Shown: in pieces, positions 473-61,200 of the stretch
How the letters are laid out: each line of letters begins with the position of its first letter
Position numbering within the stretch: position 1 is the first letter of the stretch
Assembly (NCBI GenBank): GCA_964057225.1
Contig: OZ059894.1
Coordinates: 17,236,001 to 17,300,000, forward strand
Length of the DNA stretch: 64,000 nt
Source: Auanema rhodensis
Taxonomy: Eukaryota; Animalia; Nematoda
Direction: 5' to 3'
Made by a program: the position numbers and the translations under genes
Notes under the pieces: model-generated
The model's input: only the letters and a program-made list of their open reading frames with translations
What the model was told of the DNA's origin: nothing
Databases searched by the model: none

Positions 473-474
473 AC

Positions 475-1954: not shown

Positions 1955-2628
1955 ACGTTTTAACATTTTGTTTCGAGAAGTGTACTTCTTCTTAGTGTTT
2001 ATTGGAAGTTCTCTTGAAATTCAATTAATGTGGAGCTTTAGTATTCACCTATAGATATCAGATTAATAATATTCAATTAAAAATATATATGGAAAAGTAG
2101 GAGGTTCATCGTAGTGAATGGATATTTCAGGCCGAGTGGTCTAGTGGTATGATTCTCGCTTAGGGTGCGAGAGGTCCCGGGATCGATCCCCGGCTCGGCC
2201 CACGTTTTAACATTTTGTTTCGAGAAGTGTACTTCTTCTTAGTATTTAATGGAAGTTCTCTTGAAATTCAATTAATTTTAAGCTTGAGTGTTCACCTATA
2301 GATATCAGATTAATAATATGTAGTTAAAAATAATTATGGAAAAGTAGGAGGTTCATCGTAGTGAATGGATATTTCAGGCCGAGTGGTCTAGTGGTATGAT
2401 TCTCGCTTAGGGTGGGAGAGGTCCCGGGATCGATCCCCGGCTCGGCCCACGTTTTAACATTTTGTTTCGAGAAGTGTACTTCTTCTTCGTATTTAGTTTA
2501 AGTTCTCTTGAAATTCAATTAATTTTAAGCTTTAGTATTCACCTATAGATATCAGATTAATAATATTCAGTTAAAAATAATTATGGAAAAGTAGGAGGTT
2601 CATCGTAGTGAATGGATATTTCAGGCCG

Positions 2629-2994
2629 CGTTCCATTCGGAGACTCTATATATGTAACTGCAGGGTTAGAGCCAGACCGACTAGAGGAATGTGGAATGGC
2701 ACCGCCTTCCCTCATGCCCCTATTCGGGAGTTCGCCCCTTTGCAAGCCCATGGACGGTTTGTATCTAACTTAGTTAATCTTATATATTAGTCTTTGTCTT
2801 GTAAATGTAGTTTACTTTATCCTTGTGTTATTGTATTGTAATGATATTGTATTGTGTATAATAAACCTATATATTTCCTTATCTTATGTAATCCTTATGC
2901 TCTGTTTCCATACCGCTACACTTATGGAATACTATACGCGTAGTTGAGCAGACTACAATGGTCTGTTCAATATACGTAGGAGCATAATGGAACG
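2629..2994 (+). repeat. E1 5' LTR
   Basis: Direct repeat of 14013-14378; 8-bp terminal inverted repeat CGTTCCAT...ATGGAACG; AATAAA near 2860. Confidence 0.97.
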
Positions 2995-3007
2995 TGGGGG
3001 TTCCACC
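2995..3007 (+). promoter_or_regulatory. E1 primer-binding site (tRNA-Gln, one mismatch)
   Basis: TGGGGGTTCCACC directly after the LTR; complementary to the 3' end of metazoan tRNA-Gln (GGTGGAACCT-CCA) with one A>G change. Confidence 0.85.
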
Positions 3008-3977
3008 TCGAACTCATTTTTGTCGCAAAAACTCGCATAAAAAGTCTATATTTTGATATCTAAATTAAAATTTCCTCCACGGTTAGCAACATAATGAGGT
3101 CGCCAACTTGTATAAGGTGCAGGTACAAGGGATCTCTCTTTTAGAGAGCTAGGACTATATAATTTTGAATTTTTACCCGCTGTCCCCACTCATAAAACCG
3201 TCTGAGTGTCCACCCTTATAATATCGTATCCTGCACCGCTTCTCTTGCATTTTTTTTTGAGGACGTTTGGATCGAAATAGGGGACAATTTCACCAAACGA
3301 AATTTTGATTTCATTATTATTTGGCACCGAGGAGTTAGAATGAAATTTTGAAAGCGCACAAAGTTTAATATTTTATTGTGGTCAGGACTAGAGATTTGAA
3401 AGTTAAATTCAGGCGTAAAAGAGCATGCTAAGCCTAAATATTTTTGCGGGAGCCGTTATTCGGTTTTTATTTTTTTTTGATTGTGAGAATAGACCACACT
3501 AGTCCGAAAAATCCTGGCACAAATTTTATTGCCTGTCAGGTCATTTTGGCGAAAGCACATGGGCTACGGATGTTTTCTTCTCCGTAGAATGTGTCACCTT
3601 CCTCAGCTCATTTTTGTTGCTAACATCATAAGATATTCCCACACACCTACCGTAGTCTTCATATTGTAATATTCTATAAATTAGTAAAATGGTTTAAAGA
3701 AAAAAATTGCGTTTTATAAACGAGCTTTGGTCTCAGTCCATTAGTAAAATGAGCAATCTTTTTAAAATATTCTCGGAATCTCATTAGCATGCCAAAATCA
3801 TTCCGGAAAAGAATCGCCCACGGCTTTTAATAATCAACGTGCACATGAGCCATTTTCCCAAGGCGCACGCACTCTTTCTTTATTAATAAGCTCGACCAAA
3901 GTTTGTGTTATGAAAAAAAAAAGAGAGAGAGAGAACAAATGAGTGAAATTAAGTATTTATTATATATAAAACAATTG

Positions 3978-4328
3978 TTAAAAGCCCCATTTAAAATGCA
4001 ACTGTCTCACAAATTCTATAGGCTGTGAGATGGGCTCATTGCTAGGCTCTAAATACTGCGAATACACTGAATCCGCAGAGGTCCTTAGCAATAAGCCCAT
4101 AGGAGACTGTTCATAAAACAAATAAATTTTAAACAAAATTTTAGACATATAATCATAAAAATCATGAGGCTTATGCTCATACCAATTCCAAGGGGATGCG
4201 ATTAAATTGGGGTTTTCATACCAATGCGCGCACAAATCGGTGAGGCACCATCGCCCAATAGCTGCAACCTCATCCGCTATTTCTTGCATTAGGGAGAAAT
4301 TCACTAATCCCCTCCCCAGATAATGCAT
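3978..4328 (-). CDS. Antisense ORF of unknown function in the E1 leader (116 aa)
   Basis: ATG-started, not overlapping another ORF, globular W/Y/H-rich composition, flanked by AT-rich tracts; no family recognised. Confidence 0.4.
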   Translation of the reverse strand: MHYLGRGLVNFSLMQEIADEVAAIGRWCLTDLCAHWYENPNLIASPWNWYEHKPHDFYDYMSKILFKIYLFYEQSPMGLLLRTSADSVYSQYLEPSNEPISQPIEFVRQLHFKWGF

Positions 4329-4926
4329 TTTTAAATCCTCGATAAACTAAAATTTTTTTTTTATTATTAATATAACATGTTTCTTTGTTTTAACCAACCA
4401 TCTTAATCATGTCTGGGTGAGGCCTATAAGCTAACACTTCGTCTTGATCATACAAGACGAGGTCAGCGTACAGCTTCCTCAAGACAAAAGTCATTTCCGA
4501 TAGACCTTCATAAGCCATTCTTTGATTATTTTGTTTCAGCTCTACAAATATGAAGATTCTTATGCATAAAAAGGGGACATAAAACGACTGAAAATCTCTC
4601 TCAAACTTTCAAGAATTCAATTAGAGTAAAGTATTAAGATTGAGGCTAGAAAGAGCGAAGACCAACAAAATTTATAATTGATGAACATCTGTGAAAAAGA
4701 ATAAAGAAAAGAGAATACGGTAGATAGGCGGAGCCAGATCTCAGGCCAAGATTTTAAAACTCTTTCTCATCTAATAACGATTCTCGGCGAAAGACGCCAA
4801 GTCTCAATCTTCAAACGTTTCTTACTTTCCCTATAACCGACCCGAATTTCTTGTCACTCATTCAACGTCAACATCCCCCATATAACGAAACACTCGCGGT
4901 TTTTCCAAACCAAGAGTGATTACAAA

Positions 4927-6519
4927 GTGGCACGAAGATACTCTTCGGCCGTCCCTGCTCTATACCCTTCTGAGTCCAGTGACGACATCGCAGTCGCCAG
5001 TCGAACCAGAAGCCGCACTCGACTCCTCAGTGTTCAGATTGAAGAGCCTGAACAAGAGGTAAAACCCAAAGTCGAGAAAACCTTCATTCCTCGAGAAGGC
5101 ACGTATTCACCTCCGGACAACACCGAGGAGGACCCTGATTTCTATATTCAGGACTACAATATTCAAACTTCAGCTTCAACTCCAAAAGTACACTCTTTTA
5201 AAAGTAATAAGAAGATTCAAAAAATTCAAAAACCAAAACAAATAACCTCTAATACTTCACCAGCCACCCCCCACCTAAACTTATCAACTTTATCAGTTAA
5301 TACTGATAACGATCTTGCATCTTCTTTTGAACTAACTCTAACACCGCAGGCATTTTCCACTCCGATAGAAAACTCACAAATTAATAAAACCTCATCTCTC
5401 ACTATTCGCAAATCACCCTTATCAGTTATCACTGATAAGCTTGATTCGAAAAAGCTTGATTCTAAAAAGATTAATAAAAGAAAAACTAATACACCGCGTA
5501 GGCGCTCAACCTCTAATAATCCCGTAGAACCAAATCAGGAAATTACCGAAGTTTTGCCCTTATCACTAACTACTGATAAGTTCAAAAGTAAGAAATCTTT
5601 AACAGCTCGCTTAATAAAAGTTTTGAATTTGTCTCCAGGGGAGGTAACAACAGAACAAGTTGATAACTCTCTTCACGTATCCTCCAACCCAACCCTTAAT
5701 AAGTCAGATAGCGCTATACCCAGCTCAAGCGTTTCAATACATTCGACGCCTCAGGCAACGAGTCGAGTTATCAAACTCCCAGGGAAGCGGTTCTCCTCAG
5801 CCGCCCCTACCATTAGTTATCCAACATCTGGTAACTCGAAAAAGGGAGGTAAGAATTTAACGGCGAGAAGCTCAGGCAGCAAAGGGATTACGTCATCTCA
5901 CACATACCCTGAGGATATACCAACCATGACGGAGACACCACGTCTTCCGGGAGCTGGTAAATCTACCATTGCGCACGCATTAAGCTCACCTTATTGCCCC
6001 ATATACGACGGAAGTCGTAACTTTAGAGATTTTGTGGCAAAGTTTAATACATTTTCTAACGCCTTAGGCTTAGTGATGCCCGAAAGACTAACTATTTTAC
6101 CATTACTATTGAAAAATGATAGAGCAATTCGAGCAAAACCCAAAACTTTTGCAGAGGCTTTTTATAGTGCTCGCTGGGAGGAATCAATTGCAAACCAAGT
6201 AGCAGACCCTCAGGCGCTATTGGTTAACGCAATTGAAAGAACTTTCCCCCCGCGCAGAAACAATGGTGGGAGAGGTATGGCAAGAGGTTATCAATCTTTT
6301 AATAATAAAAATTATCAAAATTATAATAATTATAATAATTATCATTCAAACTTTCAAAACAATCAAAATTATCATAAATTTTCAAAAAATCAAAAAGGCT
6401 GGAATTTCCAAAACCCATTTGCTAGGAACCGCATTTTGGTGACCGCGGTCGAAATTATCAGAATCAAAATCAAAATGGGTATCAAAGAAGCCACAATGCA
6501 TCACAAAATCAAGAAATGA
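4927..6519 (+). CDS. gag: Gag-like ORF: S/T/K/P-rich disordered N-terminal region, capsid-like segment (apparently internally deleted), N/Q/R/G-rich tail
   Basis: Position before pol; PIYDGSRNFRDFVAKF..LPLLLK and PKTFAEAFYSARWEE resemble the start and end of Ty3/gypsy capsid; first in-frame ATG only at 5926. Confidence 0.7.
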   Translation: MARRYSSAVPALYPSESSDDIAVASRTRSRTRLLSVQIEEPEQEVKPKVEKTFIPREGTYSPPDNTEEDPDFYIQDYNIQTSASTPKVHSFKSNKKIQKIQKPKQITSNTSPATPHLNLSTLSVNTDNDLASSFELTLTPQAFSTPIENSQINKTSSLTIRKSPLSVITDKLDSKKLDSKKINKRKTNTPRRRSTSNNPVEPNQEITEVLPLSLTTDKFKSKKSLTARLIKVLNLSPGEVTTEQVDNSLHVSSNPTLNKSDSAIPSSSVSIHSTPQATSRVIKLPGKRFSSAAPTISYPTSGNSKKGGKNLTARSSGSKGITSSHTYPEDIPTMTETPRLPGAGKSTIAHALSSPYCPIYDGSRNFRDFVAKFNTFSNALGLVMPERLTILPLLLKNDRAIRAKPKTFAEAFYSARWEESIANQVADPQALLVNAIERTFPPRRNNGGRGMARGYQSFNNKNYQNYNNYNNYHSNFQNNQNYHKFSKNQKGWNFQNPFARNRILVTAVEIIRIKIKMGIKEATMHHKIKK

Positions 6520-9500
6520 GCAATAATAGACAGAGAAATAACAGTACCTTTAGGGGAAATAACAACAATAGAGGCAGAGGTAGAGGCTCAAGAGTAAATA
6601 ATTTGACTCTGATATCTCCTTTGACTTTAGCCGTAGCTTTATCAGTAATCTTATCACTGGTTACAACAGCTGAAGCATACCAGCTATGTACTAAAGCTAC
6701 TGGAGGAGCCCTTCTCCGTCCCCCTTCTCTCCGAAAATGCTTATTACCACCAATAAAGCATATCTTACGAACAAAAGTTCATCTTTATACAAGGAATCAA
6801 ACGGCACATGAATGGGATGCATGGAGATGCTCCAAAGAAATTCATAAAATGTGTATCAGAGACCTTTTGTTCCTTAGAGATACCAATACAACGATAGCGA
6901 GAATTGAAAAGATACCAGCTGCAGAATGCAGACTGGCAGTGAGAGATAGAAGATGGAATTGGAGTGAATTAAAGAAGATCGACAGCATAACATATGCAAC
7001 TGACGAGCCTTCCTTCTCGCCAGGCCGATTTTTTAATAATGAACTATGTAAAGAGAAAGCCAGATTGGTTATCGAAAGAGGGGTTATGACACGGATGCCA
7101 GATGAAACTATAATCTCCAATTTAATACTAAATACTGAAGGATGCTTAGCGCATCATGGAGAATGTGCATCAGATACCTCAATCATCATATGGGAGAAAC
7201 AGCCTTATGAATATCGATGCAACTATATCGACATGAGTGAATATGATGCGATAATTGGAGACGGCATTATTCTGTTACCAACCACTCAATCAGCCCTTGT
7301 AATCGATCAAAAAGAGATACCGAAGCAAATATCTTCTTGTTTTAAACAGCCAATCTTCCACACCACAACTGGCAATTACATTCTCTTACCACAGTACCCA
7401 AATGACACCAATATCCATGTTTTAATAGAGAGAGAATATAAGAAACTTCCGGCGAAAAGAGATAAAAGAGCAATTGCGGAATGCACGGTTGAATTAAACA
7501 AGGAGTGGATACAAAAACAGGAAGATTTTGAAACTTTAATATTAAATATTTGTCCTTATCCTTTCTTACGACCGGTGATGAGTAATCCTGGTATTTATCA
7601 GATAATACCGCTTATAAAGGCCAGACGAGCTGTCAACCCTTCATATTCAATTATTGATTGGGTTTCAGCACATCCCGAGAAGTTTTATTTCTTCTTAAGA
7701 AGTCCCGTATATGATAAATCCATACAACGTTTCCTTCAAACATACGAAATACACAACCCTGAGGAAGCAATACTTTATTTTCTTGCGCAAAAGGAACTGG
7801 CAGCAACCACTCGCGGCGCTATACGGTATTTAACCTCACAACAATTATTAGAACAGATAGGTGACAGATTAACAGCACACGAATTTGACGAAAAACTACT
7901 AGAAAAGGACGGATCCTACCGTGAAAGAGCCGAAAGCATAGCGATGGAGCTAGCTTATACACCGGTAATATTTGAAAACAATCTGTCGGTACCATCAAGG
8001 CAAGAGGTTTTAAAATCCTTTGTGAACATGCCGCCTATCCGACCAACTTTAACAACTGACAATGCTGATGAGCGTATAGTACTTAGAAATACTCTTTACT
8101 TATACCATAACTTGATGACATTGCGAGTAATAAGGCCAAATAAAACAGCAGCAGCCGTAGATGATGAAAAGTTCCGACAATTAACAATCAATGTGCCAGA
8201 TACCAACAAACTATATCGAGATAAAGATTCTAACTACGGTATATCGATAGGCCCCCACCCTCGCATTCAAACTCCAAGCGCGTATATTGAAACGTATACG
8301 TATATTGAAACACCGCCTTATCTGACTAGAAGACTGTCATTAACGACAACAACGGACAAACCCGCTTCACTAGTTCAGGAGACAACTATAAGCTATACGA
8401 CTCGGATTCCGACGACAACCACAGTTGACACGACAACAGCCGTGATAACTACGACTCTCTCGCCAACAACATTAGCAACAGTCACTGACACGGCGTCACG
8501 AACCTTAAGGAAACAAAGAACATCATCTCCACCCGTAGAAACCAGAGAAATTCAGGCTCAGGCAACGTATACAGCGTCAAAAGTGAACAACGAAATACAA
8601 TTCAACCTCAACGTATCTCGCAGAATAGCTCAAGATCATCTACAATATACAACAACACTCATACAAGAAGAGCTACAGAAACATTTTATGGAATCTTATG
8701 AATCCATATGTGAGATTCAAAATAGATACCTCGAGCTATGGCGTTCTATTTTACACATAGAACCTACAATAGCAATGAGGACTATTTTAGGAAGAGAGGA
8801 TATTGCAGCCCGTTTCGTAGGCAGCGATATAGTTCATGTTCATATATGCCTACCTCTTCAACCTAAAGCTGTTTATCATAATCATAAGATCAATGATACA
8901 TGCTATTTGGAAACACCAGTAATAACAGAAGATGAGAGATTATATTTTGCTGCTCCAGGATCAAGAGACTTATTAACACATGGAAAAGAGATAGATTGCG
9001 AACATGTACCAACAGATGTGTACTATCAAAATGGAGAATGGATAAATATAAATGGATCGGTTGAAGTAAAACCAATATCACTCTTTGATAAAGCGAAATA
9101 CCACCAATTAACACCTTTAAAGTTCACAGGCGCTAACTTATACACCAATTTATCATTGAGAGTTTACTCAATGTCAACAGCTATTGCATATGGAGCAAGT
9201 TTAGCATCCATACGACAGAACCATGTTTTACATACTATTCACAACGATCCAAAAATTACGTCAGCCTTTAATCTTTTGAAAAAGGGCAGTGACTATATCT
9301 CTAAAGCAGCTGAGTTCACAACTTCCGCCTGGACTAGCGTAAAACAATTTCTAATAGGATCAATTGAGAGAACACTCATCTTCATAGGATCAATAGTCAC
9401 GATTGCCGCAGTATTAATAATTCTTTTCGTTGTTGCTAAATTTTGGTTCTTCAGGGCCACTCCACTAACCGTAATGCATGTCCACGAAATAGATAATGAG

Positions 9501-12500
9501 CCCCCAGGCTATGAAGAAACATTGGAACTTGTAAGCCGCCCAGACCAACAGATGCCAGATAACATCATGAAGCAATACTATCCTGCTTTAGTAACATTTA
9601 TTCCAATCGCAATACCATTTGTTGCTTCTATTGCATCAGCGGAAACAAAGTTACCATTAATATATATATCAGTTGAAGATAAACTGATTTTAGCTTTATG
9701 GGATTCAGGCTCATCAGTGTCATATGTTAGGCTCTCCACCCTCAAATATCTGAACATGGCCGAAAATGTCAAGAAGAGACATTTAGTAGCGATGGCAGCC
9801 AACAAGTCCACTTTCACATTTTATGGAAAGATAAATCTTGTAATTGAAATTGCCGGTTACGAGATCGAACACACCTTTTTGGTCTCAAACGATCATGACT
9901 GTCCTGCTCCCGCTTTAATTGGACTAGATTTCATGAAAGCGCTTAACAGCGAAAACATCGACGTTAGCCTTAAACCATCCAAGAAGAGGTTGGAGATTGA
10001 TGCCATCCCATTAATAGGAAATGAATCTATTAAGCATACGGAGATAACTGTGAATATCATTAATTTAAGAACAAAAACATTAAAACCTGATGAAGAGGCA
10101 CCTATCCCAATAAAGACAGATAAACCACTAGAATCTAACGAAGTGGTTGTCTTAGGGGATAGTGGAAGCGCATTAAAATCATTATATCCAACTGCGTTTC
10201 GTGATACCAGTGGAGTATATGTTATGTTCCGTAACGATACCGATGAAACAATAGCTATGGAAGCTAATTCAGTCATCGGACAGGCAATAATTGGAGAAAT
10301 TCCGGCTTGTGAACCCTTTAAGCATAAGCCAATTCTACCATATGTTCCGCCAGAAGCCGATTGGGAGAGTAAACTACCATATTTTCCAAGAGACTTCATA
10401 AAAGATCTTGATCTAGAGAATGCTGATCTCACGAAAGAAGAAAAACATGAGCTTACAAAAATAATTGAAAGCAATCGTGAGGCATTTCTTAACGAGGACA
10501 GGAAAATAGGCTTATTCAAAGGTTCTATAGAGCATACCATACCATTGAGAACAGATATGGATATGCCAAAGCCGAGAATAACACGTATTCCCTTAGGAAA
10601 ACAGGAAGAAATTGAAAAGCAAGTCAAAGAAATGCTTGAGCAAGGCATAATAGAGCCTTCTACATCTCTATTTAATAGCCCTGTAGTACTAGTTAAGAAG
10701 AAAGATGACACGTATAGGTTTGTGACAGATTTTCGAGCTTTAAATAATGTCACACGCAAGCAAGCTTATGTCATTCCAAGCATTTCTGACATAGTTGATT
10801 TGGCAGCAGGCGCTCAATTTTTCACAAACTTCGATTTAGTGTCAGGATTTTTTCAAATATCCTTGAGAAAATCAGATCGACCACTAACAGCATTTACGAC
10901 CACATCCGGCACATACCAGTACAAACGGATGCCGATGGGCCTTTGTGGAGCCCCTCATACCTTTCAAACAGCAGTAAGGTATTTGCAAAGTAAATGTTCG
11001 TGTAAACTATTTGTTTACTTGGACGATCTATTAGTTATATCTGATACAAGAGAACAACATCTCAAAGATATCGATGATTTACTGCAAGCAGTAGAAGAAT
11101 TGGGAATGAAGATAAAGCTTAAGAAATGCGCTTTTGCTCAACCAGAAGTGAAATTTCTAGGACTTATTGTAGGACGTCAAGGTATAAAACCTGACCCTCA
11201 AAAAGTCGCCGCCATACAAGATTATCCGGCACCAAAGAATGCAACAGGTGTACGAGCATTCTTGGGAATGGTTGGATTCTTTCGCAAATTCATGAAAGAT
11301 TTTGCACGTATCGCAAGCCCTTTATACGATCTGACAAAGGCAGATACTGAATTCAAATGGGAAAACAAACATCAAGAAGCTTTAGACCTCCTTAAAAGAA
11401 TTTTAATACAGGCACCCGTTTTAAGCCCACCTAAATCGGACCGCTTGTTTATAGTTGAAAGCGACGGTAGTAACATCGCCATAGGTGCTGTATTATTACA
11501 ACCGGAAGATCCAAAACAACCTCTGAAAAATCTACACCCTATCGCATTTGCAAGCAGAAAACTAGTTAAAGCCGAACGTAACTACGCACCAATCGAGATA
11601 GAAGCATTAGGCCTTGTATATGCATTAAATCAATTCCGTACATACATTCTTGGAACTCATACTATATGTATTACGGACCATCGACCCCTTACCAGCTTAA
11701 TGACACGCAGAGACTTATTTGGTCGTCTTGCGAAGTTCCAGCTGGTCATCCAAGAATATGATATTGAAATAAAATATCGCGCAGGCCAATTAAATAAAGT
11801 ATGCGATGCTCTATCTCGATATATAGGTGAAGAAGCTAACGATGCTAAGCCGGAAACAAAGAAGAAGAAAATGGAAGAAATTCACATTAACGCCATAAAT
11901 ACACCAACAATAAAGGAAATTCAACTAAACACCCCTTGGATTAAACGGACGATAGCGGAGATTGAATATAGAGCACAAAAGAACATGACAGCTAATGACA
12001 GATATTGTGTCATAAATGACTTGCTCTATACAAAACCAACAGACAAAAAGCCACAACCACAAGAACACCCCATAATTGAGGAAATAATCAAAGTTTTTCA
12101 TGAGGATCCTACAATTGCAGCACATCAAGGAATTATTAAAACAAAAGAAGCAATTCTAAGAAGATTCTATTGGACAAATATGCAGAACGACATTACTATA
12201 TTCATCAAGAATTGCATTAAATGTGCTCAAAGAAAAAAAGATCCACATTCCATGACGGTACAACCAATAGGTCATTTTGAGATACCAAGCAAGCCATTTG
12301 AACGAGTCCACATGGACGTAATGGGACCATTTCCCCCTTCAAAAAGAAACTGTACCTACGTCATTACCATGCAAGACGCATTTACAAAATGGTCAACAAC
12401 AATTGCTGTACCACAAATAACAACGGAAATCACAATTGACCGATTTCTAAGACATTTCGTTTACATTTTTGGACCACCCCATCGCTTGATCACCGATAGA

Positions 12501-13304: not shown

Positions 13305-14001
13305 CAACAAGATAATGCTACGTTATTTAAATTATTGTAACAAAATAACGATGAATTAGAAAAAAAAAAAAAAAAAAAAAATTAATGCTAAATAACATTC
13401 AAAATAAAAATAGCATTTAATAGAGATTGAGAAAGGAAAAATAAGGCAAATTCTAAACGAGGAGATGTTATGACTAATGGTTCCAAGTTACCGTAATCCT
13501 ATGCGGACTAGAGGACATTTTGACAACCATCCGAGCTCCATGTGCCTCCCCAAATAAGATGAGATAAACACTGGTAGGCGTATAAACCACAATTTCATCT
13601 TAAGTGGTAGTCTCCATTAGTAATCAAGGATTCACTCTGGGAGACATATGGAGACACATTATTAAATCATAATCTCGGTTCAATTTAGAAATGAGTACTT
13701 CTTGAGACCATTAGTCAAAATAATAACATATTCCCATTCATTACTAGCCCCTTATTCTACAATCTCTATTAAGAAATGCTTGAATATTAAGATAATTAAT
13801 TTATGAAATTAATAATATTCTAATTCATCGTCACTTCATATTATATTGAACCCTTCTTATAAATTATTGTAATTTTGTTTTATACTAATTAAAACTCTAT
13901 CATACTATAGTTATTGTGAAGCTAAAACATTTAAACTTTAAAACTCAGTTACATATAAGCCCAAACTTTTGTTTAAAATATCGCGAGGTGCGACAATCTT
14001 T

Positions 14002-14010
14002 GAAAAAGGG
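14002..14010 (+). promoter_or_regulatory. E1 polypurine tract
   Basis: GAAAAAGGG, then CA, then the 3' LTR. Confidence 0.8.
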
Positions 14011-14012
14011 CA

Positions 14013-48000: not shown

Positions 48001-51000
48001 GGAGGTTCATCGTAGTGAATGGATATTTCAGGCCGAGTGGTCTAGTGGTATGATTCTCGCTTAGGGTGCGAGAGGTCCCGGGATCGATCCCCGGCTCGGC
48101 CCACGTTTTAACATTTTTTTCGAGAAGTGTACTTCTTCTTAGTATTTAGTGGAAGTTCTCTTGAAATTCAATTAATTTTAAGCTTGAGTATTCACCTATA
48201 GATATCAGATTAATAATAGGTAGTTAAAAATAATTATGGAAAAGTAGGAGGTTCATCGTAGTGAATGGATATTTCAGGCCGAGTGGTCTAGTGGTATGAT
48301 TCTCGCTTAGGGTGCGAGAGGTCCCGGGATCGATCCCCGGCTCGGCTCACGTTTTAACATTTTTTTTCGAGATGTGTACTTCTTCTTAGTATTTAGTGGA
48401 AGTTCTCTTGAAATTCAATTAATTTTAAGCTTGAGTATTCACCTATAGATATCAGATTAATAATAGGTAGTTAAAAATAATTATGGAAAAGTAGGAGGTT
48501 CATCGTAGTGAATGGATATTTCAGGCCGAGTGGTCTAGTGGATTGATTCTCGCTTAGGGTGCGAGAGGTCCCGGGATCGATCCCCGGCTCGGCCCACGTT
48601 TTAACATTTTTTTTCGAGAAGTGTACTTCTTCTTAGTATTTAGTGGAAGTTCTCTTGAAATTCAATCAATGTTGAGCTTTAGTATTCACCTATAGATATC
48701 AGATTAATAATAGGTAGTTAAAAATAATTATGGAAAAGTAGGAGGTTCATCGTAGTGAATGGATATTTCAGGCCGAGTGGTCTAGTGGTATGATTCTCGC
48801 TTAGGGTGCGAGAGGTCCCGGGATCGATCCCCGGCTCGGCCCACGTTTTAACATTTTTTTTCGAGAAGTGTACTTCTTCTTAGTATTTAGTGCAAGTTCT
48901 CTTGAAATTCAATTAATTTTAAGCTTGAGTGTTCACCTATAAATATCAGATTAATAATATTCAGTTAAAAATAATTATGGAAAAGTAGGAGGTTCATCGT
49001 AGTGAATGGATATTTCAGGCCGAGTGGTCTAGTGGTATGATTCTCGCTTAGGGTGCGAGAGGTCCCGGGATCGATCCCCGGCTCGGCCCACGTTTTAACA
49101 TTTTTTTTCGAGAAGTGTACTTCTTCTTAGTATTTAGTTGAAGTTCTCTTGAAATTCAATCAATGTTGAGCTTTAGTATTCACCTATAGATATCAGATTA
49201 ATAATAGGTAGTTAAAAATAATTATGGAAAAGTAGGAGGTTCATCGTAGTGAATGGATATTTCAGGCCGAGTGGTCTAGTGGTATGATTCTCGCTTAGGG
49301 TGCGAGAGGTCCCGGGATCGATCCCCGGCTCGGCCCACGTTTTAACATTTTTTTTCGAGAAGTGTACTTCTTCTTAGTATTTAGTGGAAGTTCTCTTGAA
49401 ATTCAATTAATTTTAAGCTTGAGTATTCACCTATAGATATCAGATTAATAATATGTAGTTAAAAATAATTATGGAAAAGTAGGAGGTTCATCGTAGTGAA
49501 TGGATATTTCAGGCCGAGTGGTCTAGTGGATTGATTCTCGCTTAGGGTGCGAGAGGTCCCGGGATCGATCCCCGGCTCGGCCCACGTTTTAAAAATTTTT
49601 TTTCGAGAAGTGTACTTCTTTTTAGTATTTAGTTGAAGTTCTCTTGAAATTCAATCAATGTTGAGCTTTAGTATTCACCTATAGATATCAGATTAATAAT
49701 ATTCAGTTAAAAATAATTATGGAAAAGTAGGAGGTTCATCGTAGTGAATGGATATTTCAGGCCGAGTGGTCTAGTGGATTGATTCTCGCTTAGGGTGCGA
49801 GAGGTCCCGGGATCGATCCCCGGCTCGGCCCACGTTTTAACATTTTTTTTCGAGAAGTGTACTTCTTCTTAGTATTTAGTTGAAGTTCTCTTGAAATTCA
49901 ATCAATGTGGAGCTTTAGTATTCACCTATAGATATCAGATTAATAATATTCAGTTAAAAATAATTATGGAAAAGTAGGAGGTTCATCGTAGTGAATGGAT
50001 ATTTCAGGCCGAGTGGTCTAGTGGTATGATTCTCGCTTAGGGTGCGAGAGGTCCCGGGATCGATCCCCGGCTCGGCCCACGTTTTAACATTTTTTTTCGA
50101 GAAGTGTACTTCTTCTTAGTATTTAGTTGAAGTTCTCTTGAAATTCAATCAATGTGGAGCTTTAGTATTCACCTATAGATATCAGATTAATAATATTCAG
50201 TTAAAAATAATTATGGAAAAGTAGGAGGTTCATCGTAGTGAATGGATATTTCAGGCCGAGTGGTCTAGTGGTATGATTCTCGATTAGGGTGCGAGAGGTC
50301 CCGGGATCGATCCCCGGCTCGGCCCACGTTTTAACATTTTTTTTCGAGAAGTGTACTTCTTCTTAGTATTTAGTGGAAGTTCTCTTGAAATTCAATTAAT
50401 TTTAAGCTTGAGTATTCACCTATAGATATCAGATTAATAATAGGTAGTTAAAAATAATTATGGAAAAGTAGGAGGTTCATCGTAGTGAATGGATATTTCA
50501 GGCCGAGTGGTCTAGTGGATTGATTCTCGCTTAGGGTGCGAGAGGTTCCGGGATCGATCCCCGGCTCGGCCCACGTTTTAACATTTTTTTTCGAGAAGTG
50601 TACTTCTTCTTAGTATTTAGTGGAAGTTCTCTTGAAATTCAATCAATGTTGAGCTTTAGTATTCACCTATAGATATCAGATTAATAATAGGTAGTTAAAA
50701 ATAATTATGGAAAAGTAGGAGGTTCATCGTAGTGAATGGATATTTCAGGCCGAGTGGTCTAGTGGTATGATTCTCGCTTAGGGTGCGAGAGGTCCCGGGA
50801 TCGATCCCCGGCTCGGCCCACGTTTTAACATTTTTTTTCGAGAAGTGTACTTCTTCTTAGTATTTAGGGCAAGTTCTCTTGAAATTCAATTAATTTTAAG
50901 CTTGAGTGTTCACCTATAAATATCAGATTAATAATATTCAGTTAAAAATAATTATGGAAAAGTAGGAGGTTCATCGTAGTGAATGGATATTTCAGGCCGA

Positions 51001-53816
51001 GTGGTCTAGTGGTATGATTCTCGCTTAGGGTGCGAGAGGTCCCGGGATCGATCCCCGGCTCGGCCCACGTTTTAACATTTTTTTCGAGAAGTGTACTTCT
51101 TCTTAGTATTTAGTTGAAGTTCTCTTGAAATTCAATCAATGTTGAGCTTTAGTATTCACCTATAGATATCAGATTAATAATAGGTAGTTAAAAATAATTA
51201 TGGAAAAGTAGGAGGTTCATCGTAGTGAATGGATATTTCAGGCCGAGTGGTCTAGTGGTATGATTCTCGCTTAGGGTGCGAGAGGTCCCGGGATCGATCC
51301 CTGGCTCGGCCCACGTTTTAACATTTTTTTTCGAGAAGTGTACTTCTTCTTAGTATTTAGTGGAAGTTCTCTTGAAATTCAATTAATTTTAAGCTTGAGT
51401 ATTCACCTATAGATATCAGATTAATAATATGTAGTTAAAAATAATTATGGAAAAGTAGGAGGTTCATCGTAGTGAATGGATATTTCAGGCCGAGTGGTCT
51501 AGTGGATCGATTCTCGCTTAGGGTGCGAGAGGTTCCGGGATCGATCCCCGGCTCGGCCCACGTTTTAACATTTTTTTTCGAGAAGTGTACTTCTTCTTAG
51601 TATTTAGTGGAAGTTCTCTTGAAATTCAATTAATTTTAAGCTTGAGTATTCACCTATAGATATCAGATTAATAATATGTAGTTAAAAATAATTATGGAAA
51701 AGTAGGAGGTTCATCGTAGTGAATGGATATTTCAGGCCGAGTGGTCTAGTGGATTGATTCTCGCTTAGGGTGCGAGAGGTTCCGGGATCGATCCCCGGCT
51801 CGGCCCACGTTTTAACATTTTTTTTCGAGAAGTGTACTTCTTCTTTGTATTTAGTGGAAGTTCTCTTGAAATTCAATCAATGTTGAGCTTTAGTATTCAC
51901 CTATAGATATCAGATTAATAATATTCAGTTAAAAATAATTATGGAAAAGTAGGAGGTTCATCGTAGTGAATGGATATTTCAGGCCGAGTGGTCTAGTGGA
52001 TTGATTCTCGCTTAGGGTGCGAGAGGTTCCGGGATCGATCCCCGGCTCGGCCCACGTTTTAACATTTTTTTTCGAGAAGTGTACTTCTTCTTAGTATTTA
52101 GTTGAAGTTCTCTTGAAATTCAATCAATGTTGAGCTTTAGTATTCACCTATAGATATCAGATTAATAATATTCAGTTAAAAATAATTATGGAAAAGTAGG
52201 AGGTTCATCGTAGTGAATGGATATTTCAGGCCGAGTGGTCTAGTGGTATGATTCTCGCTTAGGGTGCGAGAGGTCCCGGGATCGATCCCCGGCTCGGCCC
52301 ACGTTTTAACATTTTTTTTCGAGAAGTGTACTTCTTCTTAGTATTTAGTGGAAGTTCTCTTGAAATTCAATTAATTTTAAGCTTGAGTATTCACCTATAG
52401 ATATCAGATTAATAATATGTAGTTAAAAATAATTATGGAAAAGTAGGAGGTTCATCGTAGTGAATGGATATTTCAGGCCGAGTGGTCTAGTGGATTGATT
52501 CTCGCTTAGGGTGCGAGAGGTCCCGGGATCGATCCCCGGCTCGGCCCACGTTTTAAAAATTTTTTTTCGAGAAGTGTACTTCTTTTTAGTATTTAGTTGA
52601 AGTTCTCTTGAAATTCAATCAATGTTGAGCTTTAGTATTCACCTATAGATATCAGATTAATAATATTCAGTTAAAAATAATTATGGAAAAGTAGGAGATT
52701 CATCGTAGTGAATGGATATTTCAGGCCGAGTGGTCTAGTGGATTGATTCTCGCTTAGGGTGCGAGAGGTCCCGGGATCGATCCCCGGCTCGGCCCACGTT
52801 TTAACATTTTTTTTCGAGAAGTGTACTTCTTCTTAGTATTTAGTTGAAGTTCTCTTGAAATTCAATCAATGTGGAGCTTTAGTATTCACCTATAGATATC
52901 AGATTAATAATATTCAGTTAAAAATAATTATGGAAAAGTAGGAGGTTCATCGTAGTGAATGGATATTTCAGGCCGAGTGGTCTAGTGGTATGATTCTCGC
53001 TTAGGGTGCGAGAGGTCCCGGGATCGATCCCCGGCTCGGCCCACGTTTTAACATTTTTTTTCGAGAAGTGTACTTCTTCTTAGTATTTAGTGCAAGTTCT
53101 CTTGAAATTCAATTAATTTTAAGCTTGAGTATTCACCTATAGATATCAGATTAATAATATGTAGTTAAAAATAATTATGGAAAAGTAGGAGGTTCATCGT
53201 AGTGAATGGATATTTCAGGCCGAATGGTCTAGTGGTATGATTCTCGCTTAGGGTGCGAGAGGTCCCGGGATCGATCCCCGGCTCGGCCCACGTTTTAACA
53301 TTTTTTTTCGAGAAGTGTACTTCTTTTTAGTATTTAGTTGAAGTTCTCTTGAAATTCAATCAATGTTGAGCTTTAGTATTCACCTATAGATATCAGATTA
53401 ATAATAGGTAGTTAAAAATAATTATGGAAAAGTAGGAGGTTCATCGTAGTGAATGGATATTTCAGGCCGAGTGGTCTAGTGGTATGATTCTCGCTTAGGG
53501 TGCGAGAGGTCCCGGGATCGATCCCCGGCTCGGCCCACGTTTTAACATTTTTTTTCGAGAAGTGTACTTCTTCTTAGTATTTAGTGGAAGTTCTCTTGAA
53601 ATTCAATTAATTTTAAGCTTGAGTATTCACCTATAGATATCAGATTAATAATAGGTAGTTAAAAATAATTATGGAAAAGTAGGAGGTTCATCGTAGTGAA
53701 TGGATATTTCAGGCCGAGTGGTCTAGTGGATTGATTCTCGCTTAGGGTGCGAGAGGTCCCGGGATCGATCCCCGGCTCGGCCCACGTTTTAACATTTTTT
53801 TTCGAGAAGTGTACTT
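39092..53816 (+). repeat. tRNA-Pro(AGG) array, segment 4 (about 60 genes) with an 18-unit duplication and a common GGAT-TGAT D-loop variant
   Basis: Gene starts 39139 to 53712 span 59 periods; variants recur at 4445 bp. Confidence 0.97.
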
Positions 53817-53817
53817 T
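53816..53817. other. Inversion breakpoint of the tRNA array
   Basis: ...GAGAAGTGTACTT (forward unit) is joined directly to TAGGTGAATACTAAAGC (reverse-complement unit). Confidence 0.95.
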
Positions 53818-53913
53818 AGGTGAATACTAAAGCTTAAAATTAATTGAATTTCAAGAGAACTTCCACTAAATACTAGAAAAAAGTACACTTCTCGAAAAAA
53901 AATGTTAAAACGT

Positions 53914-53985
53914 GGGCCGAGCCGGGGATCGATCCCGGGACCTCTCGCACCCTAAGCGAGAATCATACCACTAGACCACTCGGCC
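53914..53985 (-). tRNA. tRNA-Pro(AGG), first inverted copy
   Basis: Reverse complement of the consensus gene. Confidence 0.96.
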
Positions 53986-55084
53986 TGAAATATCCATTCA
54001 CAACGATGAACCTTCTACGTTTCCATAATTATTTTTAACTGAATATTATTAATCTGTGTTCCATACGTGTCCTATAAGTAGAGCGATTGACAACGTCAAT
54101 CGCTTATAAAACGGAACATTATAAAAACAAATAGCTGACGCTACATTTGAGAAACAGGAATTCAATGCAATAATGAACGAACACTTTTTCATATTAAGTT
54201 TAATTAAAGAAAGCCCAATTCAAGCGGAACCAAGTTCCGCGGACCTGATATAACCACTTTTTATGCTCGTAAGGAAAACTATATAAGGTTTCCTTACGAG
54301 TCCTTTGGGCTGCGACTAGGAATCATTATGTAACTTTTATTATTGTAATTTGTATACTTTATCATGAATAAACCTTTCTCTCTATACTCTTTATCATTTA
54401 TATTTGGAAGAAAAGAAAGTAATTCCATGTGGTTACCCAGCCGGAACCCTGGGGAACCACCATGGAACGTGGAGGTTCCACCGAGATTCGTCTATAACCG
54501 ACGAATCTCTAAGAACCATATTTCGCTACATAAATTTAATTTTGTTGTCTTTCATACATCTAATTAAAGAATTATATTTCGATTATGCTATATGAATTTA
54601 ATTTGAAATCTTTCTCTTCTTTATTTCATTCATTCAAAGAACTTTATTTTGATTTTGATTCATAAATTAATACTGAAATCTTATATACATTTATTTAAAA
54701 AGATATATTTTGAAACAACTCAATTTTGAAATTTTATATTTATTCATTTAAAAGAAACATTTCGATTTTTATCCATATTCTAAGATCTTTCATTCATTTT
54801 TGAGGAAAAACTTTGTTTATAACTATCATAAATTAATTTGAAATTCTTTTATATTTATTCATTTAAAGAAAGGTATTTCGATATTTTTTTTTCTGTCAAT
54901 CTTTTCTTTTTCTGTTTTTTTTAATCAAAATCTATTCTATCTCTTATAAATTTTTGTTATAAAGTTTCAAACAATTTTTGAATCAAAAATGAATTAATTT
55001 CTTTCATGAATCATCACAAAATTCATTGTTTTATATATATTAAAATTCATTAATTTCTATTCTATCCTTTAAAATGTATTACTC

Positions 55085-55087
<3 letters not shown>

Positions 55088-55126
<39 letters not shown>
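55088..55126. repeat. (TA)n microsatellite inside E4
   Basis: About 19 TA units, followed by a short TTCCTACTATA tandem repeat. Confidence 0.95.
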
Positions 55127-55130
<4 letters not shown>

Positions 55131-55906
55131 GTACAAAACTATTCTATACTAGTACTATATTCCTACTATATTCCTACTATATTCCTATTTTATTTTTCTT
55201 TTATCTTCTTTTAAATTTTATCTTTTTCCCTCTCTTATTACTATTATTTTTTCTCTTCTTCCTAATATAACCCAGAAAACAGCCAAATAATTTTGAAATT
55301 TTTTATCTGAATCCCGAACCTAAGATTTACAATTTTGCATTTTGATCCTAAAAGTAGCCCGTGAGAAGCAATACCAGACTGTCTCGAGAACTGAGCGGAG
55401 GCAACCACTATTTTTGATATAAGACGTACGCATTCCTGATTTTGAAGATCCCTTTTTGGTCCTATTTTTGCAAGTTCGAAAATTACGACAGAATTAGTCG
55501 AGAATGAAAGTGTTAGAGTGGTCTCACCATGAAAAATCAGGGAAGCAGAATTTCGTTAAGGGAGCGATTTCTGTGATTTTTCATAGGCAAGAGAAGTCTG
55601 GGAAAGTGAATGTACGAGGCCTGAGCACCTAATCTTGTCGAAAGACTGAAAGGGAATACTGCTTAGATCACCGTCGTATATTTCACGCCTATTCGAGAGA
55701 TGGGAACTTGATCCTAGAAAGGGCGCACCGGTCACAGGCCCGTGTATGTACCCGATTGAGCAATTCTCCGTTAGAAGATTCGCTGCAGGCTGGCCCCCTA
55801 GCAAGCGTCACGCATACAACCCCATATTGCCTCTCACGTTGTATATATATTTTTATAAGTTTCGCATCGTTGGTATAATAATTTCCTTTCCAGGAAAACC
55901 AACAAG

Positions 55907-56645
55907 ATGACGGACTCGAAGAGTAAAAATCCTCCACAGGATAAAACAAATCCACAGAGCGCAGCCCCCCGTAATGATACGCACGTCGAGCCAGTACTCG
56001 AGCAGAATCAAAGAAAGAGAGGACCTCCAAATGTTTATGAGCCGGACACGAAGCGCCGACCTACTGCTGCAAAGAAACCACCCGCTATACCGGGTACCCC
56101 CGCGAAAAAAAAATAGGCACAACAGCTATCAAAACTTCTCGCCACGCTATTACTCTTAGTAAAATTAAAACGTCTATTAACAAACAAACTCCTAAACGCA
56201 ATTCTAACGTTATCAAAAGCTCTAGCTATGTTAGCACAAATACTTCCCCTTGTAAAGATTATTCTCAAATATCATTTTCATACCCAAATACTGCTATTCT
56301 TTCTTCTCCTCTTCCTCGAAATTCACCAAACTATCAGAGAAAATAGAAGAAAACGCAAGAAAAGAATTGTATGAGGAACGGAAGAAGGAGCCACCCACAA
56401 TTAAGAAATGGAGTTCAGCACTTAAATTGGCATTGGGATTAGAAGATAATTCTCCTACAACGCCAGCAAAGCCTTATCATGTGCCGATAAGGTATCACAG
56501 CACCATACCAGTAACAGAGCCGAAGAAGAGAGTTTCGAAGAGTCAGATCCCGGACCCAAACTTCGTGGCACCAACAGTACCAGTCATCCATAAGAAAAGA
56601 CCGTCAATAGTTATTGGGACTACAAGTAAGAAGCTAGAACAATAG
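55907..56645 (+). pseudogene. Possible single K/P/S/T-rich ORF broken by two frameshifts at A-runs
   Basis: ATG 55907 follows a TTTCCAG acceptor-like site; shifts at the A-runs near 56105-56114 and 56340 join the 69-aa ORF, an open IGTTAIKTSR...NYQRK frame and the 92-aa ORF. Confidence 0.4.
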
Positions 56646-57008
56646 TAAAAATCCATAATTTCTATATAAAAATCACAAAAAGTATAATACCATTTTCATA
56701 ATTTTCATCTAAACTTGAACCTATATATAATTTTTTTTTTCTCATTTAAGTAATACATAAAATTCTACACAAATTATTGTACATTTTTTATTTTTCACTC
56801 TCATAAAAATATTGTATTAATAACCAAAATTTCAAAATAAAATTATACATCATACTTGGAATCTTTCAAAAATCACTGCAAAGTTTTAATCAACAATCTT
56901 CATCACTTTTTCACCTAACTGGTCAGAAAGGAGGCGACAAAAAGGAAGGAACAGACCGACCTAGTTTTAAAAAGGATAAAAGGACAGAAAACAGCAACAA
57001 AGATAACA

Positions 57009-57611
57009 ATGTCCACCCAACTTCCTGAAGCCGTCGAAATTCCCCTCATGGTGGCCAAAAAGAGATGGCTTTCAATTCAACTATTAGTAAGAGAATTGAA
57101 GCAGCTAGGCGCCAATACCATCACCAACCGCCCTAGGAAAGAGAAGATCCTGAAAGAGTTAGTTCAAGGACTAACAAGAGCGAAAACTAGTACTGAAACG
57201 CTCAAAATCCTATGTTACCAATACGACAAGGACCGACTGTCGGAGGTTGACCACTGCATAGGACCATGGACCAACATAGCAGGAGTCATCCAAGAAGCCA
57301 TTGCTGAACTAAGGGACCAACTAGGTTATTCACCTAGTTGCGATTCACCAGAACAGCAGACACCAAACTGGATTATTGCCGAGACCCATTCGGCCTATCA
57401 AGAATGGAGCCTGCAACATTGCAGCGAACTGCCATCCATAGAGGCAAGAAAAAACATTATAAATGCTCTACAAATATTTCTGGCATCACCAGCAACCACC
57501 AAGGAAGAAATGGAAAGAAAAACGGATTTATGCAACAAGACTATGGATCTTCTCCACGACCTAGGATTATCACCATTACCAGAGATACACCAGTATTATG
57601 AAGAAGACTAA
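57009..57611 (+). CDS. Unknown, probably helical 200-aa protein in E4
   Basis: ATG-to-TAA intact ORF, GC-richer than its flanks, protein-like composition, just upstream of the 3' LTR; no family recognised. Confidence 0.65.
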   Translation: MSTQLPEAVEIPLMVAKKRWLSIQLLVRELKQLGANTITNRPRKEKILKELVQGLTRAKTSTETLKILCYQYDKDRLSEVDHCIGPWTNIAGVIQEAIAELRDQLGYSPSCDSPEQQTPNWIIAETHSAYQEWSLQHCSELPSIEARKNIINALQIFLASPATTKEEMERKTDLCNKTMDLLHDLGLSPLPEIHQYYEED

Positions 57612-58225
57612 AAAGGACTTTTGAAAGATTCCCAGTATGATATATGATATATTATTTTGTAATTACATTGTTTTCCTTTATTTTTTCTCATAAAATTGTT
57701 CTGTATTATCAGTATTCTTTTATTTTTTGAAATATTTCATACAACTTTCACATTGCATGGAATTTCACTTTCTCGATGTAGCTGAGGTCAGCTACTTTTT
57801 CGGTATTAGGCATGTTCCATACGTGTCCTATAAGTAGAGCGATTGACAACGTCAATCGCTTATAAAACGGAACATTATAAAAACAAATAGCTGACGCTAC
57901 ATTTGAGAAACAGGAATTCAATGCAATAATGAACGAACACTTTTTCATATTAAGTTTAATTAAAGAAAGCCCAATTCAAGCGGAACCAAGTTCCGCGGAC
58001 CTGATATAACCACTTTTTATGCTCGTAAGGAAAACTATATAAGGTTTCCTTACGAGTCCTTTGGGCTGCGACTAGGAATCATTATGTAACTTTTATTATT
58101 GTAATTTGTATACTTTATCATGAATAAACCTTTCTCTCTATACTCTTTATCATTTATATTTGGAAGAAAAGAAAGTAATTCCATGTGGTTACCCAGCCGG
58201 AACCCTGGGGAACCACCATGGAACG

Positions 58226-61200
58226 TCTGATATCTATAGGTGAATACTAAAGCTTAAAATTAATTGAATTTCAAGAGAACTTCTACTAAATACTAGAAAA
58301 AAGTACACTTCTCGAAAAAAAATGTTAAAACGTGGGCCGAGCCGGGGATCGATCCCGGGACCTCTCGCACCCTAAGCGAGAATCATACCACTAGACCACT
58401 CGGCCTGAAATATCCATTCACTACGATGAACCTTCTACGTTTCCATAATTATTTTTAACTGAATATTATTAATCTGATATCTATAGGTGAATACTAAAGC
58501 TTAAAATTAATTGAATTTCAAGAGAACTTTCACTAAATACTAAAAAAAAGTACACTTCTCGAAAAAAAATGTTAAAACGTGGGCCGAGCCGGGGATCGAT
58601 CCCGGGACCTCTCGCACCCTAAGCGAGAATCATACCACTAGACCACTCGGCCTGAAATATCCATTCACTAAGATGAACCTCCTACTTTTCCATATATATT
58701 TTTAACTGAATATTATTAATCTGATATCTATAGGTGAATACTAAAGCTTAAAATTAATTGAATTTCAAGAGAACTTCCACTAAATACTAAGAAAAAGTAC
58801 ACTTCTCGAAAAAAAATGTTAAAACGTGGGCCGAGCCGGGGATCGATCCCGGGACCTCTCGCACCCTAAGCGAGAATCATACCACTAGACCACTCGGCCT
58901 GAAATATCCATTCACTAAGATGAACCTCCTACTTTTCCATATATATTTTTAACTGAATATTATTAATCTGATATTTATAGGTGAACACTCAAGCTTAAAA
59001 TTAATTGAATTTCAAGAGAACTTAAACTAAATACGAAGAAGAAGTACACTTCTCGAAAAAAAATGTTAAAACGTGGGCCGAGCCGGGGATCGATCCCGGG
59101 ACCTCTCGCACCCTAAGCGACAATCATACCAATAGACCACTCGGCCTGTAATATCCATTCACTACGATGAAAATTCTACTTTTCCATATATATTTTTAAT
59201 TGAATATCATTAATCTGATATCTATAGGTGAATACTAAAGCTCAACATTAATTGAATTTCAAGAGAACTTAAACTAAATACGAAGAAGAAGTACACTTCT
59301 CGAAACAAAATGTTAAAACGTGGGCCGAGCCGGGGATCGATCCCGGGACCTCTCGCACCCTAAGCGAGAATCATACCACTAGACCACTCGGCCTGAAATA
59401 TCCATTCACTACGATGAACCTTCTACGTTTCCATAATTATTTTTAACTGAATATTATTAATCTGATATCTATAGGTGAATACTAAAGCTTAAAATTAATT
59501 GAATTTCAAGAGAACTTTCACTAAATACTAAAAAAAAGTACACTTCTCGAAAAAAAATGTTAAAACGTGGGCCGAGCCGGGGATCGATCCCGGGACCTCT
59601 CGCACCCTAAGCGAGAATCATACCACTAGACCACTGGGCCTGAAATATCCATTCACTACGATGAACCTTCTACGTTTCCATAATTATTTTTAACTACATA
59701 TTATTAATCTGATATCTAGAGGTGAATACTAAAGCTTAAAATTAATTGAATTTCAAGAGAACTTCCACTAAATACTAAGAAGAAGTACACTTCTCGAAAA
59801 AAAATGTTAAAACGTGGGCCGAGCCGGGGATCGATCCCGGGACCTCTCGCACCCTAAGCGAGAATCATACCACTAGACCACTCGGCCTGAAATATCCATT
59901 CACTACGATGAACCTTCTACGTTTCCATAATTATTTTTAACTGAATATTATTAATCTGATATCTATAGGTGAATACTAAAGCTTAAAATTAATTGAATTT
60001 CAAGAGAACTTTCACTAAATACTAAAAAAAAGTACACTTCTCGAAAAAAAATGTTAAAACGTGGGCCGAGCCGGGGATCGATCCCGGGACCTCTCGCACC
60101 CTAAGCGAGAATTATACCACTAGACCACTCGGCCTAAAATATCCATTCACTACGATGAACCTTCTACGTTTCCATAATTATTTTTAACTGAATATTATTA
60201 ATCTGATATCTATAGGTGAATACTAAAGCTTAAAATTAATTGAATTTCAAGAGAACTTCCACTAAATACTAAGAAGAAGTACACTTCTCGAAAAAAAATG
60301 TTAAAACGTGGGCCGAGCCGGGGATCGATCCCGGGACCTCTCGCACCCTAAGCGAGAATCATACCACTAGACCACTCGGCCTGAAATATCCATTCACTAC
60401 GATGAACCTTCTACGTTTCCATAATTATTTTTAACTGAATATTATTAATCTGATATCTATAGGTGAATACTAAAGCTTAAAATTAATTGAATTTCAAGAG
60501 AACTTTCACTAAATACTAAAAAAAAGTACACTTCTCGAAAAAAAATGTTAAAACGTGGGCCGAGCCGGGGATCGATCCCGGGACCTCTCGCACCCTAAGC
60601 GAGAATCATACCACTAGACCACTCGGCCTGAAATATCCATTCACTACGATGAACCTTCTACGTTTCCATAATTATTTTTAACTGAATATTATTAATCTGA
60701 TATCTATAGGTGAATACTAAAGCTTAAAATTAATTGAATTTCAAGAGAACTTCCACTAAATACTAAGAAGAAGTACACTTCTCGAAAAAAAATGTTAAAA
60801 CGTGGGCCGAGCCGGGGATCGATCCCGGGACCTCTCGCACCCTAAGCGAGAATCATACCACTAGACCACTCGGCCTGAAATATCTATTCACTACGATGAA
60901 CCTTCTACGTTTCCATAATTATTTTTAACTGAATATTATTAATCTGATATCTATAGGTGAATACTAAAGCTTAAAATTAATTGAATTTCAAGAGAACTTC
61001 CACTAAATACTAAGAAAAAGTACACTTCTCGAAAAAAAATGTTAAAACGTGGGCCGAGCCGGGGATCGATCCCGGGACCTCTCGCACCCTAAGCGAGAAT
61101 CATACCACTAGACCACTCGGCCTGAAATATCCATTCACTAAGATGAACCTCCTACTTTTCCATATATATTTTTAACTGAATATTATTAATCTGATATCTA

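Follow-up and report, generated by a model that had tools for sequence, protein, structure and literature searches.

Four young LTR retrotransposon insertions near tRNA gene starts in a tandem tRNA-Pro array of Auanema: opportunistic accumulation or targeting?

Do retrotransposons with long terminal repeats (LTRs) in an animal seek out the 5' ends of genes that RNA polymerase III (Pol III) transcribes, as certain elements of yeasts and social amoebae do, or do they collect there for other reasons? This question is raised by a 64,000-bp stretch of contig OZ059894.1 (Auanema rhodensis, assembly GCA_964057225.1), called the window in the following, in which a tandem array of tRNA-Pro genes is interrupted by four LTR elements, E1 to E4 (Table 1). 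An initial annotation had proposed a Pol III-targeting lineage. Our preferred reading, to which we give a probability of about 0.45, is an opportunistic accumulation in the array combined with a bias towards accessible DNA, with no dedicated tether.

The four target duplications were found exactly where they had been described, at +2..+5, -47..-44, -69..-66 and -71..-68 relative to the start of the tRNA gene. Since the LTRs of different elements show identities of 48-64% (z=15 for E1-E3, z=1.9-4.4 for the other pairs), they represent four distinct families and four events, and the youth of these families is confirmed by the 0-1 mismatches within each LTR pair. All 162 element-free units examined are without gaps and the empty sites of all four elements differ from an intact unit by 1-6 mismatches, which indicates clean inserts; no fifth insert or solo LTR is present in the window and, as had been claimed, no other part of the unit was hit. 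An assembly artefact or an array-driven copying of one insertion is ruled out by the four families, the four sites and the near-intact empty-site units. Altogether, E1 to E4 are four independent, very recent insertions.

E1, E2 and E3 have the same orientation as their own tRNA gene, while E4 has the opposite one, the array running on the minus strand at this point. Thus, E2 and E4 lie 2 bases apart in opposite orientation, in agreement with the initial annotation. The assumption that the sites are set by position and not by sequence also holds, as the four duplications (GCCG, GATT, ATAA and TCTG) all differ, a fifth one occurs at an additional E1-family site described below, and no shared flank is visible by eye. 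A sequence-specific targeting was rejected on the same grounds of differing duplications. E1 inserted within the mature 5' end of its tRNA, but the gene is not destroyed: the terminal G of the LTR at the right junction provides tRNA base +1 and the duplication rebuilds the rest of the first five bases, which leaves a gene called whole by ARAGORN and Rfam. The upstream flank of this restored copy is now an LTR.

Table 1. Features of the window (positions on the forward strand; duplication positions relative to the tRNA start; ORF, open reading frame; RT, reverse transcriptase)
Feature	Position	Strand	Description
tRNA array	1..64000	plus to 53816, minus after	tandem 247-bp units, each with one tRNA-Pro(AGG) gene and a 175-bp spacer
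Array inversion junction	53816..53817		blunt, tail-to-tail, between unit +105 and unit -79; E4 starts 240 bases to the right
E1	2629..14378	+	11,750-bp gag-env-pol Ty3/gypsy element, ends CG...CG
E1 LTRs	2629-2994 and 14013-14378		mismatch 1/366
E1 target duplication	left 2625..2628, right 14379-14382	+	GCCG, +2..+5
E1 primer-binding site	2995..3006	+	tRNA-Gln type, 11/12, flush with LTR
E1 gag-like ORF	4837..6519	+	560 aa stop to stop, no Pfam match
E1 env-protease-RT-RNaseH-integrase ORF	6426..13304	+	2292 aa
Whole tRNA gene restored beside E1	14378..14449	+	ARAGORN and Rfam
E2	15795..18486	+	2,692-bp non-autonomous element, ends TG...CG
E2 LTRs	15795-16175 and 18106-18486		mismatch 1/381; duplication GATT at -69..-66
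E2 integrase SH3 remnant	17275..17484	+	most similar to an Auanema relative of E1/E3 (45%, E=1e-10)
E3	35308..39091	+	3,784-bp deleted element, ends CG...CG
E3 LTRs	35308-35644 and 38755-39091		mismatch 0/337; duplication ATAA at -47..-44
E3 integrase-only ORF	36689..38059	+	456 aa with a 62-aa acidic tail; identity to the E1 integrase 69%
E4	54057..58225	+	4,169-bp non-autonomous element, ends TG...CG
E4 LTRs	54057-54469 and 57813-58225		mismatch 0/413; duplication TCTG at -71..-68 (tRNA strand)
E4 ORF	56919..57611	+	230 aa, no homolog found

The placement within the unit indicates clustering beyond chance only weakly. For four random sites, a common 72-base arc would be obtained with P=0.10 and two sites within 2 bases with P=0.12, while both together have P=0.028. 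If an interval of -80..+5 is set as a prior, the probability that all four sites fall into it is 0.014, or 0.023-0.047 when weighted by A+T content; one array site is seen per family and the window of interest was picked post hoc. An absence of any positional bias has to be considered, with insertions occurring anywhere, surviving in the repeat block and clustering by chance in an odd-looking window. The values for the arc without prior and for the 2-base pair are compatible with this explanation, and at a density of about 1000 young copies per 100 Mb the genome would be expected to contain a window of this kind. We nonetheless regard it as rather improbable, given the joint value, the location of the cluster where known Pol III-associated elements insert (Table 1 of PMC5911963) and an LTR depth of the E1 family that points to a low copy number (see below).

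In our preferred reading, the four independent and very recent insertions are of related LTR elements primed by tRNA-Gln, with defective copies probably moved in trans by one or few helper integrases that may recognise the shared ...AACG ends and the Gln primer site. Binding of TFIIIC across the gene and of TFIIIB across about -45..-10, footprints familiar from yeast, would shield these parts, whereas the edges at +2 and from -44 to -71 would stay open, and the exposed A+T-rich DNA there would receive the integration. By analogy to yeast, the zone of TFIIIB is expected at -43..+1, and none of the four sites falls into it. As a redundant and possibly germline-restricted repeat block, the array would be a place where insertions cost little and persist, and body cells may lack it, as described for Auanema rhodense.

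The closest integrases originate from Auanema. For A. rhodense, a preprint (bioRxiv 10.64898/2026.08.27.747507) reports 19,554 tRNA genes, the loss of about 61% of the genome in body cells and germline-restricted arrays of tRNA, 5S and U2 genes. If the host of the present array is similar, such germline-only tRNA arrays could offer a ready low-cost compartment. According to the same source, 141 of 360 eliminated genes (39%) carry a transposon annotation compared to about 0.9% of the retained ones; a rough division per Mb gives no higher density of these 141 genes than in retained DNA, which cautions against over-reading this difference. The idea of the array as a safe harbour can be kept in part, namely as a low-cost site in which the tRNA genes are whole after all four insertions.

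The gene content of the elements is in line with a mobilization in trans. In E1, the domain order is env, protease, RT, RNase H and integrase. A fusion domain of the gB/class III type was identified at aa 738-879 (PF24664, 55.1 bits with a cut-off of 27, E=4e-15), while PF00606 scored under its own cut-off, and the integrase ends with an SH3 domain and a 60-aa acidic tail. The gag lies in another frame than env-pol, with a change of frame at about 6300-6450, and its capsid part appears short compared to the related protein P0014. E3 has lost gag, env and RT, its integrase frame being still open. In E4, shorter gag-like low-complexity frames occur near 55900-56650, and the 230-aa ORF showed no match in Pfam, to homologs or in the Atlas. 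No match to env was obtained in E2, in E4 or upstream of the E3 integrase. None of the four elements looks fully autonomous and env is found in one of them; consequently, four events need not mean four integrases.

All four LTRs finish with ...AACG (2994, 16175, 35644, 54469 and the 3' LTR ends), and E1 and E3 start with CG, too; the usual LTR terminus is CA. The primer-binding site abuts the LTR without a spacer in all four elements and is of the tRNA-Gln type in each of them, with 12 of 12 matching bases in E2, E3 and E4 and 11 of 12 in E1.

The best relatives of E1 are polyproteins of Auanema, Caenorhabditis, Diploscapter and Heterorhabditis with the same layout and 38-46% identity over residues 700-2200. 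A quick integrase tree with SH-aLRT supports was built on 43 rows out of 122 eligible ones, made up of E1, E3, 21 named proteins and, from the remainder, the first 20. In this tree, E1 and E3 grouped with four Auanema proteins (100), as a sister to the Caenorhabditis, Diploscapter and Heterorhabditis proteins (97), which makes a rhabditid nematode the likely host. Judged by this placement, E1 and E3 are new members of the known nematode GAG-ENV-POL clade of Ty3/gypsy elements. E2 is connected to the clade by the best match of its integrase remnant, E4 to the other elements by the Gln primer site and its GTTCC...GGAACG ends, with LTR z-values of 1.9-2.2 and no protein homology. The proposal of a single related lineage is therefore carried by the Gln primer site in all four elements and by the integrase kinship of E1, E3 and the E2 remnant, while E4 may join through termini and primer site. 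Likewise, the description as a metazoan env-bearing lineage suits E1 with its env and its nematode clade, but the env is confined to this element. The protein P0061 (Q17329), presumably Cer1 of C. elegans, is a nematode Ty3/gypsy polyprotein like E1, but shares 31% identity with it and sits on a long branch outside the E1/E3 clade, so that a membership of E1 and E3 in Cer1 was rejected. In the strict sense attributed to Sacco et al. 2022, NERVs are reportedly characterized by one continuous gag-env-pro-pol ORF. Since gag and env-pol of E1 are in different frames, whereas P0027 spans this joint, E1 was not filed as an intact NERV.

The GAG-ENV-POL layout of nematodes has been described in an eLife survey as 'ancient errantiviruses' (PMC13524379), a group to which the NERVs reportedly described by Sacco et al. 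2022 are assigned. The elements of the survey share with E1 the gB-type env between gag and pol and the order RT-RNase H-integrase, and with all four elements the tRNA-Gln primer site flush with the LTR, which is given for 8 of 11 Caenorhabditis rows and not called in three (supplementary file 1, 30 of 36 nematode rows covered). In contrast to them, the families described here are new, with Auanema copies as the nearest ones, the gag of E1 is out of frame, three partners are non-autonomous and the LTRs end with CG. The terms 'target site', 'TSD', 'insertion site' and 'Pol III' do not appear in its main text.

Further copies were sought in public sequencing runs. Eleven runs from three studies contained 68-76% of the sampled words of the E1 ORF; four of them (X1, X4, X6 and X8) were compared, with the spacer and the E1 5' LTR only. 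Contigs of such runs drop rare variants, and all depths are contig depths and thus a poor measure of copy number. The depth of the E1-family LTR was 1.1-2.8x that of the E1 interior in the four runs, which points to a low-copy family. In two of the four runs this LTR was found with flanks outside the array, on the left in X1 and X8 and on the right in X8. As the left and right flanks share a 4-base duplication, they represent a separate E1-family insertion. Its 30-base flanks are unlike the array unit and contain no evident tRNA body by eye. Both flanks run unbranched for at least 255 bases in X8, compared to 68-115 bases for the spacer contigs listed there, which hints at low-copy DNA around this site; in X1, the left-flank contig ends after 79 bases. 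No LTR flank was present among the pieces listed for X4 and X6, and no junction of E1 with the array among the rows listed for the four runs. Foreign loose ends in the spacer were likewise missing among the pieces listed for all four, which is no evidence of absence because rare variants are dropped.

The junction of LTR end and primer site was 8-49x deeper than the E1 interior (49x in X1, 8-12x in the other three runs), which indicates a lineage larger than E1. The ratio of spacer (2449-2616) to E1-internal depth varied about 90-fold among the four runs, from 2.3 to 207, with the highest value in X1. This faintly suggests a lower representation of the array in part of the samples, as would be expected for a germline-restricted or copy-variable array. 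That junction depth and spacer depth both peak in X1 fits a shared under-represented compartment, although this is one run and contig depth. Furthermore, a sister family of LTRs occurred in three of the four runs; it has about 90% identity to the E1 LTR over 2727-2966 and a different 5' part.

Several observations weigh against the opportunistic reading. A loose targeting, with 60-80% of events in -80..+5, is favoured by a likelihood ratio of 4-29 for four out of four sites, and the 2-base distance of E2 and E4 in opposite orientation resembles a hot spot. Under a uniform rate, four young elements in 41 kb of array have a genome-wide P of 0.0004-0.02 if not more than 200 young copies are present per 50-200 Mb; the observed density exceeds such a rate by far unless some hundreds to a thousand young copies exist in the genome, and is expected with about 1000 copies per 50-100 Mb. 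Farther out than the 30 bases visible on each side, the E1-family copy outside the array unit could be accompanied by a dispersed Pol III gene, also at the distances of -44 to -71 observed in the array. Moreover, tRNA genes make up 29% of the array compared to less than 20% in the RNA arrays described for A. rhodense (bioRxiv 10.64898/2026.08.27.747507), and for DGLT-A families of D. lacteum, insertion at a distance of 55-65 bases upstream from tRNA genes is described (PMC5006619).

The alternative suggested by these points is a dedicated targeting, in which the integrase would be held by TFIIIB, TFIIIC or Pol III at family-specific distances, possibly via its acidic tail, in the manner of Ty1, Ty3 and DGLT-A. 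We consider this possible, but doubtful. The prior-window value of 0.014, the two families 2 bases apart without a common target sequence and the empty TFIIIB zone would agree with it, as would the intact tRNA gene left by all four insertions, for which the chance is 0.21. Family-specific distances have a parallel in the DGLT-A families, for which 13-33 and 55-65 bases are reported (PMC5006619). The integrase tails of E1 and E3 have the words DSDIE and WLP in common; among the relatives inspected, one Auanema protein shows a loose echo of them, while they are absent from those of Caenorhabditis, Diploscapter and Heterorhabditis, which speaks against such a tether. No chromodomain was matched by Pfam in the E1 and E3 integrases. 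The best PDB match of the E3 integrase is Ty3 (E=6e-26), but the alignment stops at residue 374 of 456, at SH3 and before the chromodomain of Ty3. The highest junction depth in the run richest in array DNA would suit targeting; this again concerns one run. Compared to Ty3, whose sites fall into a window of 2-3 bases upstream of the start site and whose chromodomain is vestigial (PMC8632968), the sites described here are spread over 76 bases and include the mature tRNA 5' end, and a tether is putative. As each family was seen once, one E1-family copy lies outside the array unit, the window was chosen post hoc and one or two integrases may be behind the four events, the proposed tethering to the Pol III machinery is regarded as putative. 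Similarly doubtful appears the far-reaching scenario, an animal parallel to the targeting by Ty1 and Ty3, that envelope-bearing nematode retroviruses with CG-ended LTRs, together with non-autonomous passengers, dock on the Pol III initiation complex, insert at either edge of TFIIIB and have their home in giant germline-restricted tRNA arrays deleted in body cells.

The comparison with other systems leaves likenesses and differences. Ty3 and Tj1 of S. japonicus are Ty3/gypsy LTR elements inserted near tRNA starts in both orientations without a target sequence, as observed here. TRE5 inserts 40-54 bases upstream (PMC5006619, PMC5911963); together with NLTR-B and DGLT-A, a range of 40-65 bases is used, which matches some of the present sites, and Ty1 has a broad window. 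In contrast to the single copy per family in a tandem array, DGLT-A, TRE5 and Ty1 are described from numerous copies, in genomes that are compact and have their tRNA genes dispersed. In animals, targeting of tRNA genes is reported for sequence-specific Dada DNA transposons and for non-LTR elements (PMC8869645). These likewise use multicopy tRNA genes as a safe harbour, but they are no LTR elements and choose a fixed sequence inside the gene. The four sites share none, and a Dada-type fixed target was rejected due to the differing duplications. In the passages considered of PMC5911963 and PMC5006619, LTR elements that choose tRNA genes by position are described for yeasts and social amoebae only, which is explained by compact genomes; the words 'metazoan', 'animal', 'nematode' and 'elegans' are absent from the former review. 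In the openly available literature, with subscription papers and Repbase notes outside its scope, no animal LTR lineage was found to be reported as targeting Pol III genes by position.

A further explanation is a local preference for sequence or bendability, by which the integrase would choose flexible, TA/CA-rich DNA near -80..-65 independently of transcription. E2, E4 and the break of the array inversion at unit position -79 (a hand count from the sequence) all fall within -79..-66, and two words of this part of the unit, 7 and 6 bases long, recur by eye in the right flank of the additional E1-family site. However, chance should produce 7-base matches in A+T-rich DNA and the likeness was judged by eye, the four duplications have no sequence in common and E1 and E3 lie elsewhere, so that we regard this explanation as very unlikely. 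The inversion break is separated from the E2/E4 hot spot by 8 bases and from E4 by one unit.

If a targeting by an animal, env-bearing lineage, maybe into a germline-only array, proved true, it would mean a further independent origin of this behaviour under a different pressure, and would tie the ecology of transposons to programmed DNA elimination. Even if targeting fails, the locus documents active traffic of the clade, unusual CG ends of LTRs and new insertions for which tRNA arrays serve as a sink.

Other sequence collections gave a weak background only. In viral contigs, the motif of the LTR/primer junction occurred in 10 loci with no tRNA genes, which was taken as chance, and protein scans of these contigs found no relative. 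Ty3/gypsy loci were obtained from metagenomes (80 of 90) and from prokaryote genomes (54), with RT identities of at most about 45%; among these 134 loci the env described here was found in none, and no tRNA gene occurred in 1.14 Mb. The 54 loci from prokaryote genome bins (L091-L144) comprise a eukaryote-type Ty3/gypsy pol and are likely host contamination of the bins.

Within the window, ARAGORN called 167 tRNA genes, namely 166 of the Pro-AGG type and one with a variant anticodon (AGA, 1883-1954). The variability of the tRNA body is about 5x below that of the spacer (minor-allele values of 0.007 and 0.034-0.041, respectively) and 115 of 162 tRNA copies are identical, which suggests that selection acts on the genes.

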